DNA of 64,000 nucleotides from an uncultured Thermoleophilia bacterium (GTDB lineage: Bacteria > Actinomycetota > Thermoleophilia > Solirubrobacterales > 70-9), in assembly GCA_963718595.1 (NCBI GenBank), contig OY970365.1, positions 965,994 through 1,029,993 on the forward strand. Reading direction: 5' to 3'. This document shows positions 26,324-50,959 of this stretch, in pieces. The stretch's first letter is position 1. Every line of letters starts with the position of its first letter. Below the pieces are notes generated by a model. The model was not told the DNA's origin and made no database searches. It was given only the letters and a program-made list of their open reading frames with translations. The position numbers and the translations under genes were made by a program.

Positions 26324-28696
26324 ATGATCGGGACCTATGCCTCGGCGGCGCTGATCTGTGGCGCCTCGCTGCTGGTCGGCCGCGCGCTGCTGACGCTGGC
26401 CGGCCGGCGTGCTTGGTCGTGGCTGGAGCCGGGAGTCGGGTTCGGCGCGATCATCACCGTCAGCGGCTTGCTGGCGCGGGCGCCCGGGCACGGCACCGGC
26501 GCCAGCCTCGGCCTCCTCGCGCTGGTCGCGGTCGCGGCGGCCATCGTCTTCCGCGAGCGCGGCTACGAGGTCGCGGGCGTGCTGCGGGCCGGCGCACCGG
26601 TTGCGATCGCGATCGCTCTCCTGCTGGCGATTCCGTTCGCGGTCAGCGGCCACTGGGGGCTGCTCGGCGTCGGCTTCAACAACGACCTCGGGCTCCACCT
26701 CGCCTGGGCGGAGTGGCTGCGCAGCGGCTTCGGCCCGACGCCGGAGCCGGGCTACCCGCTCGGTCCGCACGGGCTGGCGGTGGCGACCGCGGTGGTTCCG
26801 GGAATCAACCTCGCGCAGGCCTTCATCGGCGAGATCGTCGCGATCGGCGTCCTCACCGGGTTGACCGCGATCGGCGCCCTCGGCGAGATGCGACCGGCGC
26901 GGCGGGCTCTGGCGGCGGTGCTGGTGGCGGTGCCCTACCTGGCCGCCTCCTACTTCGCCCAGGCGGCCTTCAAGGAGACCGCCGAGGCGCTCTTCGTGCT
27001 CAGCACCGTCGTCTTCCTCCTGGCGCCGGGGTCGTTGCCGACGGGGTTCCGGCGGCGACTGCGCTTCGCGCTGCCGGTACTGGCGCTGCTCGGCGGCATC
27101 TTCTTCTCCTACAGCTTCGCCGGCGTCGCCTGGCCGGTCGCGATCGCCGCCCTCTGGAGCCTGACCCTGCCGGCGGTGCGACGGGCGCTGCGGCCGAAGG
27201 CGCTGCTGCGCTTCCTGCTGCGACCGCTGACGCTGCTGGCGCTGATCGTCCTGGCCGGGCTCGCGGTCCTGGCCCTGGTCGGCCCCTTCGGCTTCGCCGG
27301 CGCCTTCAACAAGGTCGCCGGCAGCAACACCTACGGCCCGGTCTCGCCGATCGAGACGCTCGGCGTCTGGTGGAGCTCCAACTATCGCCTCGACGCGGTC
27401 GGCAGCGCCATGCTGCCGGGCTTGGCCGGGGCGATCGCGGTGGCGGCGCTACTGGTCGGCGTTGCCTGGTGGGTGCAGCGGCGCGAAGTGACGGTCCCGA
27501 TCGCGCTCGGCGGCGCCGCCGTCCTCTACCTGGTTTCGCTGCCCTTCAGCGGCGACTACTCGCAGGCCAAGGCCCTGATGATCGCCGCCCCGCTGGCAAT
27601 GCTGGTCGCCGCCAAACCGCTGATCTGGGAGTTCCCCCGCCTCGCCCGCCGACGGGCCGATAACGGGCCTATATCTCCCGTTATCGGCCCGTCGGCGGGG
27701 GTTTTGCGGGTTGGGTGGGCGCTGCTTGGCATCGCCTTCGTCGGCGGATCGATCTATTCGAGCCTGCTGGTGCTGCGGGACGCGCCGGTGGCGCCGCCGG
27801 GGCACGGGTCGGAGCTGCAGGCGTTCCTGCCGATCGTGCGCGGCGAGCCGGTGCTCTACGCGGGTCAGGACCGCTACGCCGCCTACGAGCTGCTCGGCGC
27901 CGACACCCACGTGCCGCTGGTCGAGTTTCCCGACGAGGCGGTCTCGCCCAACCCGGAGAAGCCGTTCGACACCGGCGACGCCTACAGCCCGATCGACTTC
28001 GACTCGTTCTCGACCGGCACCCTCAACGCCTTCCCCTATGTGGTCACCAGCCGCGCCGCCTGGAACAGCGAGGCGCCGCCGAACTTCAAGCGCGTCGCCG
28101 CCACCCCCTCCTACGTCCTCTGGGAACGCGACGGCGACACCCCCGAGGACCGCCAGGTCCTGCTCGAGGGAACCGCCGCTGGCGCCTACGCCGGCTGCGA
28201 CTCGCCCGAGATCCGCATCCTGCTCGCCAACCCCGGGCACGCGACGCTCTTCCCCGACGCCGTGGTCGGCGGCAAAGCCGACTGGGACGCCGGCTCGATC
28301 CTCAGCCCCGGCAGCGAGACCTCGCAGACCCTGGACCTGCCCGCCGGGACCTGGAACCTCTCCCTCCAGTACTTCTCCCCCCTCGCCCTCACCCTCTCCG
28401 CCCCCGGCTTCCAAGAGCCCCTCCACGCCGCCCTCGACGGCCAACGCCCGAACACGATCAGCCTCGGCAACAACGGCCAGTTCTGGCCCGCGGGCCGCTA
28501 CGAGAGCGACGGCGGCAGCACCCGCTTCACGCTCTCAGTAGCCGACGCCACCACGATCCAAGACCTCACCGGCTACAGCGGCAAGGCCTACATCGGCGAA
28601 CTGGTCGCCGTCCCAGCCAAGCCTCACCGGACCGTGCCCCTATCCCAGGCCTGCAACTCCTGGATCGACTCTTACGAATCCGACGCGGCACCGTAG
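26324..28696 (+). CDS. large polytopic membrane protein with a C-terminal extracytoplasmic domain (GT-C-like glycosyltransferase candidate)
   Basis: Track ORF from TTG 26312; ATG 26324 is more likely. More than 12 hydrophobic helices in the first ~470 aa, then a ~300-aa soluble region. The family call is an inference from architecture only. Confidence 0.7.
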   Translation: MIGTYASAALICGASLLVGRALLTLAGRRAWSWLEPGVGFGAIITVSGLLARAPGHGTGASLGLLALVAVAAAIVFRERGYEVAGVLRAGAPVAIAIALLLAIPFAVSGHWGLLGVGFNNDLGLHLAWAEWLRSGFGPTPEPGYPLGPHGLAVATAVVPGINLAQAFIGEIVAIGVLTGLTAIGALGEMRPARRALAAVLVAVPYLAASYFAQAAFKETAEALFVLSTVVFLLAPGSLPTGFRRRLRFALPVLALLGGIFFSYSFAGVAWPVAIAALWSLTLPAVRRALRPKALLRFLLRPLTLLALIVLAGLAVLALVGPFGFAGAFNKVAGSNTYGPVSPIETLGVWWSSNYRLDAVGSAMLPGLAGAIAVAALLVGVAWWVQRREVTVPIALGGAAVLYLVSLPFSGDYSQAKALMIAAPLAMLVAAKPLIWEFPRLARRRADNGPISPVIGPSAGVLRVGWALLGIAFVGGSIYSSLLVLRDAPVAPPGHGSELQAFLPIVRGEPVLYAGQDRYAAYELLGADTHVPLVEFPDEAVSPNPEKPFDTGDAYSPIDFDSFSTGTLNAFPYVVTSRAAWNSEAPPNFKRVAATPSYVLWERDGDTPEDRQVLLEGTAAGAYAGCDSPEIRILLANPGHATLFPDAVVGGKADWDAGSILSPGSETSQTLDLPAGTWNLSLQYFSPLALTLSAPGFQEPLHAALDGQRPNTISLGNNGQFWPAGRYESDGGSTRFTLSVADATTIQDLTGYSGKAYIGELVAVPAKPHRTVPLSQACNSWIDSYESDAAP
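27649..27695. repeat. 47-nt palindromic element (subtype I) inside the membrane-protein CDS
   Basis: ccgacgggccgataacggg-cctatatct-cccgttatcggcccgtcgg: perfect 19-bp arms with an AT-rich loop. Translated in frame as RRADNGPISPVIGPS. Confidence 0.85.
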
Positions 28697-42339: not shown

Positions 42340-43055
42340 TTCGAGGGGGTTTGGTGAGAGGGGTTGGGGGTCTCTCGTGCTCGCTGGATTTTTCGCCCGG
42401 ACTCCCGGATAGCTCTCAAGAGCGGACAAGCGAAAAATTAACGCCGCTGTGCGCGAGAGACCCCCAACCCCTCCCCTCAGACCTCCCGAAGAGATCCGCT
42501 AGCTCCCAGGGTTCGCTCGTTTGCAGTTTGGATCGCTCCAGGGTTCGGTCCTCTGCACTTTTGGCTGGCTCCAGGGTTCGATCGTCTGCCGGGAGAGATC
42601 GAGCCGCTTCAGCTCGTGAGTTGCCGGTTAGTTCCGCATAGCGAGAACAACCGGCAACTCGTGAAGGAGGTTTTGGATGAGCCTTGGGCGGATTGGGCTC
42701 TCGGCCTTCCTCTTGAGAGAGAGATTGCGTCCCTTGTCGTCTATCTAGAGAGATTCCGTCCCTTGTCATCTCTTTGCAGAGATGCCGGACCCTGGTCGTC
42801 CCTCTCTAGGGATCCCGAACCCTGGGCGTCCCTGTCTAGAGATGTCGAACCTCGTTCGTCAGCTTCGAGATGGTCCCGGTTCGCGAGGGACGGTGGGGGT
42901 GTCCTCCGTACGAGCGGCGTCCTCATTTTTGCGCTGCAGCGGTATCTCGGACGGTGGGAGCACTCCCCAGCAAAAATCCCAGCGAAGGTAGGAGGACACC
43001 CCCACCGTCCCTCCCGGCCCGAGGGCCGGGGAGGAGCGCAGCGGCCCGAGGTTGG
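42340..43055 (+). repeat. ~715-bp non-coding composite palindromic repeat, copy 2
   Basis: Same order of modules as 1433-2119: hairpin 42358-42473, forward units at 42506/42538/42571, central hairpin 42618-42660, five reverse units (ending 42736, 42765, 42795, 42825, about 42853), hairpin 42885-43013. Confidence 0.9.
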
Positions 43056-43062
43056 CGAGACC

Positions 43063-47948: not shown

Positions 47949-48275
47949 GTGACCGGAAAACTTACCGACGTATCCGACGCAACTTTCAAAGCCGACGTCC
48001 TCGACGCCGAGGGCCCCGTGCTCGTTGACTTCTGGGCCCCCTGGTGCGGCCCCTGCCGCGTCGTCCATCCGGTCCTCGAGGAGATCGACGGCGAGCGTGA
48101 CGATCTCACGATCCTCTCGATCAACGTCGACGAGAACCAGCAGACGGCGGAACAGTACGGCGTCCTCTCGATCCCGACGATGATCCTCTTCAAGCAGGGC
48201 GAGATCGCCAAGAAAGTCGTCGGCGCGATGCCCAAGCGTCGCCTCGAGGCGGAGCTGGAGCCGGCGCTCGCTTAG
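47949..48275 (+). CDS. trxA: thioredoxin
   Basis: 108 aa with the WAPWCGPCR active site. Confidence 0.95.
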   Translation: MTGKLTDVSDATFKADVLDAEGPVLVDFWAPWCGPCRVVHPVLEEIDGERDDLTILSINVDENQQTAEQYGVLSIPTMILFKQGEIAKKVVGAMPKRRLEAELEPALA

Positions 48276-48299
48276 GCGGCGCCGCTCCCTCCATTCGCG

Positions 48300-48476
48300 A
48301 TGCCGTTCGTAGAGGTCCACTGGTACGAGGGCCGCTCCGACGACCAGAAGGCCGAGATCGCCAAGCGGATCGAAGCTGCCCTGGGCGACGTCGCCGGCGT
48401 GCCCCCGGACCACTGCTGGGTGAAGTTCTCGGACTCGAAGAAAGCCGACTTCATTATTGGGGAAGCCGAGGACTGA
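48300..48476 (+). CDS. 4-oxalocrotonate tautomerase family protein (58 aa)
   Basis: Own translation (below the track cutoff): MPFVEVHWYEGRSDDQKAEIAKRIEAALGDVAGVPPDHCWVKFSDSKKADFIIGEAED. Catalytic Pro at position 2 and a beta-alpha-beta pattern typical of 4-OT. Confidence 0.75.
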   Translation: MPFVEVHWYEGRSDDQKAEIAKRIEAALGDVAGVPPDHCWVKFSDSKKADFIIGEAED

Positions 48477-48487
48477 GGGTCAGGGAC

Positions 48488-48631
48488 GGAGGGGTGGTGG
48501 TGGCCTCTCCGGGAATTTGTCGTGCCCCCTGAAGGGGGCTACTCCCTCATGTCGAGCCCGCCTATGGCGGGCAGAAATAAGGAAAGGGCCCTTACGGGCG
48601 ACATTCCCGGAGAGGCCACCACCACCCCTCC
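48488..48631. repeat. 144-nt hairpin with a perfect 29-bp G-rich/C-rich stem enclosing three mini-hairpins
   Basis: Arms ggaggggtggtggtggcctctccgggaat / attcccggagaggccaccaccacccctcc. Interior contains gccccc-tgaa-gggggc, gcccgcc-tat-ggcgggc, gccc-ttac-gggc. Confidence 0.85.
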
Positions 48632-48776
48632 CACGCCAGCGCTCAGTCATGGCGCCCTGCTGCTCGTCGGTCAGATAACGCGGGACGAACGGATGCTGTT
48701 GATCTGGCGGAACCAAACCTCCACCCGCACCTGCTATCCGCCTACGGGCTAGGGCTGAAGTAGCTGTCCGGTTTGT

Positions 48777-48904
48777 GGCGGTGTCGGGGGTGGGTGCGTT
48801 CAGCCTCCACAACTCGTTGCATATATCCGGCGCCGCCAGGCGCCGTCTAGGTTGCACCGGCTCTGCCGGTGCTAGGCGCAAACGCACCCACCCCCGACAC
48901 CGCC
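48777..48904. repeat. 128-nt hairpin with a perfect 24-bp G-rich/C-rich stem enclosing two mini-hairpins
   Basis: Arms ggcggtgtcgggggtgggtgcgtt / aacgcacccacccccgacaccgcc. Interior contains ggcgcc-gcca-ggcgcc and gcaccggc-tct-gccggtgc. Abuts the acyltransferase stop codon. Confidence 0.85.
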
Positions 48905-50959
48905 TCAGAACAGATCCGCTTCCTTCAGCCCTTCCCCGATCCAAGGACTCAAGGTGCGGGCGAAGGTCGCCGTGAGGTGCGACTTGTCGCGGTAGACGAG
49001 GGCGTTGCCGATCACGGCGCGGCAGAGGTCGCTGGGGCAGATCTCGTCGTTGATGTCGATCAGATGGGCAAAGGGGCTGGCTTTGGCGGCGCGGACGTCG
49101 TATTCCTTGTTCCAGTCGCGGACCCGCTTGAAGGCGCACTTGTCGAGGTTGTGGAGGTCTTCGGAGACGCAGCTGGGAACGTCGCTGGCGGAGGCGGGGG
49201 TGTCGCGAATGACCGCTACCTGCAGGCCTGCGCGGTCGATTCGGTCGAGGGTCTTGCGATAACCCGCTTCGAGCGCGTCGGCGCCTTCTTCGCCGCTCAG
49301 TTCGTTGCCCGCTTCGTCGAACGGCGTGTAGGCGGTGTCACCGCTCATCACGACCATCGCCCGCGATCCGCTCCCTTCGATCCGCTTCAGCGTCTCCTCG
49401 CGCCAGGCGTCGCACTGGGAGTACTCGCGGTCTTCGATCATGCTGCGGATCTTCACCTCGCCCGGCGTGCATTCGGCCTTGGTCAGGACGATCAGGCGCC
49501 ATCTGTTCTCGTGCGCCAGTTTCTCCAGCGGCGCGAAGTACTGCATCGCGTGCGAGTCGCCGAACAGGATCAGCGTCTTCGTCCCATCCGGATCGCCGTA
49601 GAGGCAGCGGTTGGAGTTGGTGCCGGCGATCCCGACCAGGCAGCCGTCGTAGAAAGCCTGCGAGCGATCCTCGCGGGCGCGCAACGGGTTCGGGCGCAGG
49701 GCGACGGCGCTGTCCTGGGGCTCGACCTGTTGATCGAGCGCGGCCGCGCCCTGGACCTCGGACAGCGGCGCCGTCTCGAGCGACGGCTGCAGGTCTTCGA
49801 GCAGGAGGACGCCGCCGAGCGAGAGCGCCATGCAGGCGGCCCCGAGCGCGAAGGCCCGACGCGGCATCCGCACCAACGCCTTGGCGCGGCGGAACGGTTC
49901 CTCGATCGCCCAGTGGGTGATCGCCGTGGGGATCCAGGAAAAGGCGACGACGGCGATTCCCTCGGCGACCGAGAGCGGTCCCCAGAGGGCGGCGGCGAAC
50001 ATCAGCAGCGGCCAGTGCCAGAGGTACCACGAGTAGGAGATGCCGCCGATGTAGCGAGCCGGGCGGGTCGAGAGCAGACCGCTCGCAGTCGCCTGGTTGC
50101 CGCTGCTCTGCAGCGAGGCGCCGACGAGGATCAGGGCGGCGGCGCCGAGGGTCGGGACCAGGGCGGCGACGCCGGGGAAGGGGGTGGTTGCGTCGAAGGC
50201 GAGGATCGCGTAGGCGATCGCCGCCACTCCAGCCCAGCCGAGCCCGATCGCCAGCCGGCGCGGCAGCGTCACGGCCCCCAGCAGCGCCAGCAGGCCCCCG
50301 AGCGCCAGCTCCCAGGCGCGGCCGAAGGTCGAGAAGTAGGCGGCGTGGGGCTGGGCGTCGGTGTAGTAGATGCCGAAGGCGAGCGAGCCGAGGAAGATCA
50401 GGCCGAGGGTCGCCCAGAGCACCGGTCGGACCGAGCGGCCACGGCGGCGGAAATGCCAGGTCACGGCCAGGATCAGGGTCGGCCAGACGAGATAGAACTG
50501 CTCCTCGATCGCCAGCGACCAGAGGTGCAGGACCGGGCTCGGTTCGATGTCCTGAGCGAAGTAGTCGACCGACTGCGCGGCGAAGTGCCAGTTGGCGACG
50601 TAGAAGACCGAACTGACGATGTCGCCGGAAATTTCGGCAACCCGCAGCGGCGAGAGGATGATCAGGCTGAGGATCGCGACGGTGACCAGAAGGGTGGCCG
50701 AGAGCGGCAGCAGGCGTTTGATCCGGCGCGCGTAGAAGCCGGGGATCGAGATCGTGTTGGAGCGCCCCAACTCGTTCAACAGCAGGCGGGTGATCAGGAA
50801 GCCGGAGATGACGAAGAAGACGTCGACGCCGACGTAGCCGCCGGCCGCGAAGGGGATGCCGGCATGGGCGAGCAGGACCGCGACGATCGCGATCGCGCGC
50901 ATCCCTTCGATGTCCGGCCGAAAACCGGTACTCGTCTTCTCTTGTCTGGCAGAAGGCAT
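48905..50959 (-). CDS. acyltransferase family 3 membrane protein with a C-terminal SGNH-like domain (OafA/OatA-like O-acyltransferase)
   Basis: 684 aa. FRPDIEGMRAIAIVAVLLAHAG...VDVFFVISGFLIT, about 10 TM, then a soluble domain with LFGDSHA. Confidence 0.85.
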   Translation of the reverse strand: MPSARQEKTSTGFRPDIEGMRAIAIVAVLLAHAGIPFAAGGYVGVDVFFVISGFLITRLLLNELGRSNTISIPGFYARRIKRLLPLSATLLVTVAILSLIILSPLRVAEISGDIVSSVFYVANWHFAAQSVDYFAQDIEPSPVLHLWSLAIEEQFYLVWPTLILAVTWHFRRRGRSVRPVLWATLGLIFLGSLAFGIYYTDAQPHAAYFSTFGRAWELALGGLLALLGAVTLPRRLAIGLGWAGVAAIAYAILAFDATTPFPGVAALVPTLGAAALILVGASLQSSGNQATASGLLSTRPARYIGGISYSWYLWHWPLLMFAAALWGPLSVAEGIAVVAFSWIPTAITHWAIEEPFRRAKALVRMPRRAFALGAACMALSLGGVLLLEDLQPSLETAPLSEVQGAAALDQQVEPQDSAVALRPNPLRAREDRSQAFYDGCLVGIAGTNSNRCLYGDPDGTKTLILFGDSHAMQYFAPLEKLAHENRWRLIVLTKAECTPGEVKIRSMIEDREYSQCDAWREETLKRIEGSGSRAMVVMSGDTAYTPFDEAGNELSGEEGADALEAGYRKTLDRIDRAGLQVAVIRDTPASASDVPSCVSEDLHNLDKCAFKRVRDWNKEYDVRAAKASPFAHLIDINDEICPSDLCRAVIGNALVYRDKSHLTATFARTLSPWIGEGLKEADLF

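Follow-up and report, generated by a model that had tools for sequence, protein, structure and literature searches.

What are the two long hairpins that stand between a pair of converging genes in the genome of an uncultured Thermoleophilia bacterium of the order Solirubrobacterales? They lie in a stretch of 64,000 nucleotides (contig OY970365.1 of assembly GCA_963718595.1, positions 965,994 to 1,029,993 of the forward strand), which we call the window and whose numbering is used below unless a genome position is given. A sequence-only reading of the window had placed the hairpins at 48488-48631 and 48777-48904, and had offered three explanations for them: elements similar to miniature inverted-repeat transposable elements (MITEs), structured RNAs, or sites able to switch between hairpin and G-quadruplex. 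On re-examination, these coordinates and the stems of both hairpins, which we name modules A and B, proved exact. We consider it probable, while leaving real room for doubt, that A and B each represent a separate family, and that both families fall within a superfamily of modular intergenic repeats restricted to one genus. On this reading, the elements are a lineage-specific relative of REP/BIME-type intergenic repeats, and neither an RNA gene nor a classical transposon. The modules are probably mobile, conserved in structure and kept at the DNA level, and probably also act as hairpins at the 3' ends of messenger RNAs (mRNAs).

In module A, which starts 11 nt past the stop codon of a tautomerase gene, a perfect 29-bp stem closes a conserved four-way-junction core, and the interior measures 86 nt. 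Module B has a perfect 24-bp stem (arms 48777-48800 and 48881-48904) and an interior of 80 nt, with a core different from that of A. Its interior holds two clear small hairpins (48828-48845 and 48854-48872) and a weak third, and its stem adjoins the stop codon of an acyltransferase gene (48905-48907). The parts of the locus are as follows.

48488..48631, + strand: hairpin module A (family A, forward on the + strand), recognised by its fold, paralogues, covariation and a covariance-model score of 150.7 bits
48488..48516, + strand: 5' arm of A; in the 20-copy alignment A1, there is no variation in columns 28-31, and variation with maintained pairing in columns 2-27
48524..48539, + strand: core hairpin 1 of A (GCCCCC-TGAA-GGGGGC), helix 2 of A1
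48556..48572, + strand: core hairpin 2 of A (GCCCGCC-TAT-GGCGGGC), helix 3 of A1
48588..48599, + strand: core hairpin 3 of A (GCCC-TTAC-GGGC), from predicted folds
48603..48631, + strand: 3' arm of A, exact complement of 48488-48516
48632..48776, no strand: spacer between modules A and B, aligned with 10 family-A pair loci
48777..48904, - strand: hairpin module B (family B, forward on the - strand), recognised by its fold and by relatives in four other genomes of the genus

The outer 21 nt of the 5' arm of A are specific to this copy, whereas the part next to the junction, here GGGAAT, is conserved in the family (GGG[C]GAAT). An imperfect outer extension of the stem, in which 48471-48516 pairs with 48603-48648, covers the tautomerase stop codon (48474-48476). 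Core hairpin 2 is the most conserved block of family A and served as the search motif in public sequences; core hairpin 3 was left unscored in A1 because its length differs among copies. RNA folding gives -114.1 kcal/mol for A and -97.4 kcal/mol for B, with z = -10.3 for each and none of 200 dinucleotide shuffles folding as well. When DNA parameters are used, both strands of A and B fold equally well (z = -10.8 to -13.5).

Other features reported from the letters alone also hold. The 5' arms of A and B are indeed G-rich (52-62% G), and the GC content of the interiors (0.63-0.66) is below that of the arms (0.69-0.75); for the four other hairpins, which belong to a 0.7-kb repeat, the corresponding values are 0.51-0.59 and 0.70-0.74. 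No long identity is shared by A and B with each other or with the hairpins of the 0.7-kb repeat, BLAST detecting none. The combination of a G-rich 5' arm and a C-rich 3' arm is universal in the hairpin class described below, whose 5' arms average 51% G.

The source genome (G000) is a single contig of 2.86 Mb, with 69% GC and a completeness of 92.6%. We ran the genome-wide search for inverted repeats that the sequence-only reading had named as a check, and it reveals a sharply defined class, far above chance. Among perfect stems of at least 20 bp in the whole genome, 85 enclose an interior of 55-115 nt, none an interior of 31-54 nt and only one an interior of 116-200 nt, while a 20-bp perfect inverted repeat at such spacing and GC content is expected, by our estimate, ~0.002 times per genome. 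The modules are ~110-150 nt long, with closing stems of 20-31 bp and a core in which three small hairpins and invariant junction bases build a four-way junction. Clustering of their interiors yields several families: family A, a third family, smaller groups and, with 45 and 8 copies, the two types of hairpin found in the 0.7-kb repeat. Family A has 19 perfect-stem copies in the genome, or 20 when one imperfect copy is included. The earlier wording, by which A could pass for unique, needs correcting on this point, as A is 75-86% identical to 19 other copies in the genome. Family B is represented in the source genome by one decayed relative of hairpin B (genome position 1373046-1373146). Elsewhere in the genus it forms pairs in three genomes (G014, G008 and G018) and occurs as a single copy in a fourth (G006), with different perfect stems of 23-25 bp around the same core; perfect stems were taken copy by copy, and pooled stem counts were not used, since the MAFFT alignment of the outer stems of this family is out of register.

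All ten other family-A loci in the genome are head-to-head pairs, in which ~150 nt of spacer separate a forward from a reverse module. The same forward-spacer-reverse layout is found at the B-family loci of relatives and in the 0.7-kb repeat. The window locus is a hybrid pair, with A as its forward and B as its reverse module. Since pairs in convergent gaps are head to head, each module is oriented like the gene that it follows. Family-A modules carry a conserved tail of ~20 nt beyond the 3' arm (CCACGAA.CGTCCC..CAG), which the first ~20 nt of the window spacer (CACGCCAGCGCTCAGTC) match; the remainder of the spacer is copy-specific, and a BLAST search with the window spacer returns only itself.

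The third family counts 16 copies, mostly single modules, whose interiors begin TCCGCTTAACTTTTTTG and whose copy-specific stems of 19-28 bp often end CCCGGTAGGGGT. Its sites in the source genome (G000:C1) are at 483072, 585895, 644347, 858465, 929417, 1358296, 1514279, 1592459, 1803384, 2097909, 2181708 and 2189496. These single modules are co-oriented with the preceding gene in 8 of the 10 informative cases.

Which parts of a module are conserved, and which are free to vary, can be read from A1, the alignment of 20 family-A copies that is the basis of the pairing statistics and of the covariance model. Copies and genomes are related, and counts across them, here and below, overstate independence. 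The junction is invariant (GAAT/ATTC, TCG and CGCCTATGGCG), and the outer stems display all four Watson-Crick pair types at most positions. Nevertheless, 98.3% of the cells in A1 are paired, against 74.7% in column shuffles and 39-51% with slid partners, and the covariation score is 0.61, against 0.16 in the control. Double changes are found at 25 of the 30 outer-stem pairs and a one-sided (G-U) change at none of the 30; no G-U pair is present among ~600 stem cells. Two of the core hairpins also covary. In helix 2, double changes affect 4 of the 7 pairs (GC/AU, UA/CG, CG/AU/GC), while helix 3 is 100% paired and its pair 76/88 covaries (CG 15, UA 3, GC 2).

A larger set of 94 copies from many genomes, totalling 2684 stem bp, contains 8 G.T and 22 A.C mismatches, which is the reverse of what selection on a forward-strand RNA predicts, although the numbers are small and the copies related. 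The only non-Watson-Crick position that is tolerated is a T.C mismatch at pair five, counted from the inner end (CCG-T-GAAT opposite ATTC-C-CGG). It recurs in 25 of these 94 stems, drawn from several genomes, for example at G000:C1:175238-175382 and 2621748-2621892. Since pairing is strictly Watson-Crick and strand-symmetric, the evidence suggests a constraint on the DNA or on both transcripts, not on a single RNA. A DNA-level or two-strand constraint fits better than a one-strand RNA gene. The structured RNA of the sequence-only reading is therefore sound as far as the fold is concerned, which covariation strongly backs, but fits less well as a one-strand RNA gene, because pairs are Watson-Crick only, both strands are equal and Rfam has no match.

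The stems have also changed between close relatives. We compared 13 orthologous modules of the source genome and its sister genome G014, scoring 28 stem positions in each, with flanks that are 85-97% identical. Compensated positions, at which both arms have changed and are still complementary, number 38, of which 22 are of the transition type and 16 of the transversion type. By our estimate, neutral and independent change at ~7% divergence would produce <1. Transversion pairs have no route through a G-U intermediate. Single-arm changes amount to 16 in the 13 modules, 7 of them in one decayed hairpin and 9 across the 12 intact stems. For a variant stem with five compensated changes, there is no paralogous donor in G014, G016 or the source genome. 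We infer from these changes either DNA-level copying from arm to arm, of the quasi-palindrome template-switch kind, or very efficient selection; alternatively, the changed stems may have arrived as whole alleles imported from unsampled lineages. In the decaying hairpin, which is the reverse module of L100 (G014:C35:78080-78740), one arm has changed at 7 positions and the other is unchanged. Judged by its two arms, this hairpin shows that stems are not always kept.

Modules are gained and lost between sister genomes. At the window locus, where the flanking acyltransferase gene is 93% identical in G014, that genome has a single unrelated hairpin with a 25-bp stem, while one other hairpin is present in G005, two others in G017 and none in G001. 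Replacement or import via recombination of the flanks is the more likely origin of the G014 difference. When the joined flanks of ten A pairs were searched against five sister genomes, five of the loci were found empty in G016, some of them also in G017, G008 or G005, and eight were shared with G014; the locus at genome position 593506 is empty in G014. Given this pattern of empty and shared loci, parsimony favours several independent gains in the lineage of the source genome and G014. One locus, G000:C1:2047479-2047921, can be compared with L077 (G016:C1:498009-498860), in which the converging genes overlap by ~13 nt. In the source genome the element is flanked there by a diverged duplication of ~11-13 nt (TCAGTCGGCCT-like), so that neither reading frame loses its end. 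The arrangement resembles a target duplication. Insertion of the core into a pre-existing local terminator hairpin was considered and rejected, since empty orthologous sites have unrelated small hairpins or none; wherever sister genomes carry different module types, their stems are different as well, which also speaks against a pre-existing stem.

As for distribution, the family-A motif is found at ~55 public loci, essentially all of them in metagenome-assembled genomes (MAGs) of uncultured soil Solirubrobacterales/Thermoleophilia. Searching with the covariance model built from A1 gives hits in 35 of 40 further genomes from the same GTDB genus (between 0 and ~30 in each), and in none of 120 genomes from 48 other genera of the order; both results rest on sampled genomes, and the negative one means "not found in those searched". 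Within the source genome, 96 hairpins of the class were placed relative to gene calls made with a crude caller, which takes long open reading frames (ORFs) with a high third-position GC signal. Convergent gaps, of which the genome has 358, hold 55 of the 96 hairpins, and tandem gaps, which number 995, hold 33. Only 2 are in the 282 divergent gaps, and 6 overlap a called ORF. The hairpins mostly begin 0-30 nt from a stop codon. Their near-absence from divergent (promoter) gaps is informative.

How might such modules move and keep their stems? They would be spread or exchanged as DNA units by a structure-specific activity on a folded single strand or a cruciform, and also, or alternatively, by recombination through the flanking genes. 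Their arms would be kept identical by a process at the DNA level, such as intrastrand template switching or arm-to-arm conversion, rather than by slow compensation at the RNA level. Once placed, the modules would be transcribed within 3' untranslated regions (UTRs), in which so stable a hairpin could stop read-through between converging genes, block 3' exonucleases or give RNase III a long double-stranded RNA stem. A more specific version, which we put forward tentatively and think rather improbable, is that the modules are substrates of a structure-specific DNA system that reads the four-way-junction core, moves or copies pairs to gene ends and re-templates one arm. If this were true, stems would diversify freely yet stay perfect, the "address" (the stem) being free and the "handle" (the core) fixed, and the modules would represent a new kind of non-autonomous mobile element that does without RAYT or a known transposase.

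Several points weigh against A and B being mobile repeats kept at the DNA level. No transposase or other partner enzyme was identified. A six-frame search of the source genome with PF01797 found no Y1/RAYT gene, while control genomes respond, and none of the 12 DUF559 ORFs in the source genome is flanked by large hairpin modules. The target-site duplication is convincing at one locus only, the other empty sites being too diverged to judge. Since window A is 86% identical to its nearest paralogue, import or replacement of an allele is likelier than a recent jump within the genome. The T.C mismatch that persists in 25 of 94 stems should vanish if arms were homogenised blindly, and its persistence implies that homogenisation is not blind. 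Pairing limited to Watson-Crick pairs is also expected if both strands are transcribed and both RNAs must fold, so that selection may act on RNA as well. Finally, closeness to stop codons is partly trivial, because the empty gaps of relatives measure just 0-70 nt.

The rival explanation that survives best is that the modules are primarily RNA elements of the mRNA 3' end, i.e., lineage-specific, factor-dependent or bidirectional terminators, barriers to 3' exonucleases or RNase III sites, their spread being secondary. We regard this as possible, though it is not what we expect. It accounts readily for placement directly after stop codons and near-absence from divergent gaps, for modules sharing the orientation of the gene that they follow, and for a conserved and extremely stable fold that includes the small core hairpins. 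The region is without a canonical terminator, so a different 3'-end signal may be required, and there is a precedent in Mycobacterium tuberculosis, the TRIT ("Tuberculosis Rho-independent terminator") motif (PMC3152330). Moreover, transcription of both strands between converging genes would leave Watson-Crick pairs as the only ones that preserve the fold in both RNAs. However, sister species do without the elements at the same sites, where they have gaps of 0-70 nt or overlapping converging genes, which implies that the elements are not needed there. A primary role in RNA also sits poorly with the 33 copies in tandem gaps, where a pair's second module runs antisense to the gene downstream, and with the lack of any G-U pair or U-tract. 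Compensated transversions accrue in a short divergence time, and the copy number varies from 0 to ~30 among species of one genus.

Classical MITEs, with a related insertion sequence whose transposase would bind the long arms as terminal inverted repeats, are very unlikely. Part of this option, as the sequence-only reading had raised it, stands: the elements are repeated, a given site may be occupied in one sister species and empty in another, one locus has the flanking duplication of ~11-13 nt, and their length and inverted-arm layout are like those of Correia or bcr1-type elements. What does not stand is the role of the arms, which are the least conserved part and show four pair types at most stem positions, conservation being found inside. 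What is inserted is normally two hairpins in inverted orientation, together with their spacer and with sequence reaching past the stems. No coding element was found between modules, even in a G008 pair with a 690-nt centre, which has no ORF with coding-like GC at third codon positions. Furthermore, the small internal hairpins covary, although recognition of double-stranded terminal repeats has no need of them.

A still weaker case can be made for independent small-RNA genes, with a separate function for every hairpin as a stable non-coding RNA. Strong covariation and a compact multi-helix fold speak for it, but no promoter-like site is found in or beside the hairpins, Rfam has no match, both strands fold equally and without a single G-U pair, and a genome has dozens of diverged copies, which are gained and lost locus by locus, all of which makes this very improbable. 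Weakest of all, and scarcely credible, is a regulatory device in which the G-rich arms switch between hairpin and G-quadruplex, as also suggested from the letters alone: the 5' arms are G-rich (mean 51% G) and a weak two-tetrad motif is possible in 79 of 96, but four runs of at least three G occur in neither the A nor the B arm and in only 17 of the 96 arms of the class, a quadruplex would have to compete with a perfect GC-rich duplex of 24-29 bp, and the stem sequence varies freely while pairing holds.

Modules A and B occupy the gap between the converging tautomerase and acyltransferase genes. The thioredoxin gene, upstream of module A and in the same direction, precedes the tautomerase gene.

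47949..48275, + strand: thioredoxin gene (Pfam PF00085, E = 3.7e-29)
48300..48476, + strand: 58-aa tautomerase-family gene (Pfam PF01361, E = 1.1e-7)
48905..50959, - strand: 684-aa acyltransferase-3 plus SGNH gene (Pfam PF01757 and PF19040)

Pattern scans gave no match to a sigma-70-like promoter in or beside the hairpins, and none to a hairpin-plus-U-tract terminator on either strand of 48200-49100. What follows the stems is CCACGCC... for A and the stop codon of the gene for B, with no U-tract. This agrees with the earlier description of the hairpins as more elaborate than an intrinsic terminator. At the gathering threshold, Rfam identifies two transfer RNAs in the window and nothing else; under relaxed settings it returns generic microRNA-precursor hairpins on both strands, at 41-48 bits against a threshold of 168.

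A few other repeats and ORFs were observed along the way. A variable tandem array, made of ~22-25-nt units with GCGGCCCGAGGT, lies past the 0.7-kb repeat's second hairpin and is seen at 2078-2140 and 43014-43060 of the window and on the same side of ~20 other copies of the repeat. At the other end, a conserved block of ~30 nt (GGCGGATTTCGTTCGAGGGGGTTTGGTGA) stands just before the repeat; in several copies it is preceded by TTAGCGGCTGAC, with stop codons in two frames. A small hairpin, GAGGTCGCGGTTAGCCCCGCATAGCGGGGTCAACTGCGACCTC, lies at ~300-345 of L081 (G016:C1:709543-710474), a site without an A-type pair. Its loop region, GCATAGCG, has a match in the hairpin at the centre of the 0.7-kb repeat (1712-1754 of the window) but the stem is different, giving again, at a smaller scale, a conserved centre with a free stem. 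The DUF559-domain ORFs, of ~280-420 aa, are found at 12 places in G000:C1, for example 75950-76150, 190759-190962 and 2650946-2651230. Beginning 11 nt after one of them is a hairpin of another family, with a 21-bp stem and a short loop (arms ending ATCCCACACC). Finally, a separate family of ~49-nt palindromes (GCCGACGGGCCGATTTCGGG, with a loop of 9-13 nt) is represented at 27645-27699 of the window and at ~25 other sites in the genome.

The modules matter for several reasons. They fill a sizeable share of the spacers at gene ends in widespread, uncultured soil actinobacteria, and they are not in Rfam. They provide a clean natural example of free sequence variation under which a small junction core and a long perfect helix persist, and the compensated transversions between sister species make the upkeep of palindromes, whether by selection or by templated correction, directly testable. 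In annotation, modules could pass for small RNAs, terminators or MITEs, and in assembly, the contigs of relatives break at them. They also have a bearing on how transcripts end in genomes without canonical terminators.

How do these repeats compare with known systems? A search of the literature on Solirubrobacterales turned up no such repeats. Integron attC sites conserve structure over sequence, and are recognised as a folded single strand with functional unpaired bases. The modules likewise conserve structure, and their conserved T.C mismatch near the junction is reminiscent of the unpaired bases of attC. However, their layout is the opposite of that of attC sites, which have conserved outer boxes and a variable centre, and which flank gene cassettes beside an integrase; nothing comparable was seen here. 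Correia elements in Neisseria, bcr1 in the Bacillus cereus group and ERIC/IRU in enterobacteria are hairpin-forming repeats of 100-160 bp, in which long inverted arms close an interior. Correia, bcr1 and ERIC elements are co-transcribed with their neighbours, and the long double-stranded RNA stem of Correia is cut by RNase III. Length and long inverted arms are similar in our modules. In those elements, however, the terminal inverted repeats are conserved and the target duplications defined, whereas each of our modules has arms of its own and only one site shows a duplication.

The REP/BIME/REPIN repeats of Proteobacteria are hairpin-forming inverted doublets with compensatory changes (Bertels and Rainey 2011, PMC3116915). 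Like them, the modules are high-copy extragenic palindromes located mostly at gene 3' ends, whose replicating unit is an inverted doublet with its spacer: 88 of the 96 hairpins are in convergent or tandem gaps, and all 10 family-A loci are paired. As in those repeats, hairpins can form in single-stranded DNA or mRNA, compensatory changes are common and copy number differs between related genomes, and the A plus B hybrid recalls the mosaic of module types in REP/BIME. They differ in size, since a REP is an imperfect palindrome of 20-40 nt whereas modules here have 128-154 nt and a multi-helix core, and in what is conserved, since a REP is a unit of conserved sequence whereas here the interior is conserved and the stem copy-specific. 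They also differ from RAYT-driven REPs in that the source genome has no RAYT/Y1 transposase and the host is an actinobacterial genus. TRIT is a motif with 147 palindromic, mostly bidirectional copies at stop codons of M. tuberculosis, for which its authors suggested a factor binding the structure, and which has been reported only in Mycobacterium (Gardner et al. 2011, PMC3152330). Both TRIT and the modules are actinobacterial, repeated and palindromic, hence bidirectional, and sit tight at stop codons in genomes poor in canonical terminators. Compared by description, TRIT has one short hairpin whose stem is strongly conserved in sequence, whereas the modules have variable stems, a four-way-junction core and spaced pairs. 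The modules are closest to REP/BIME/REPIN in their behaviour, and closest to the mycobacterial TRIT motif in their position.

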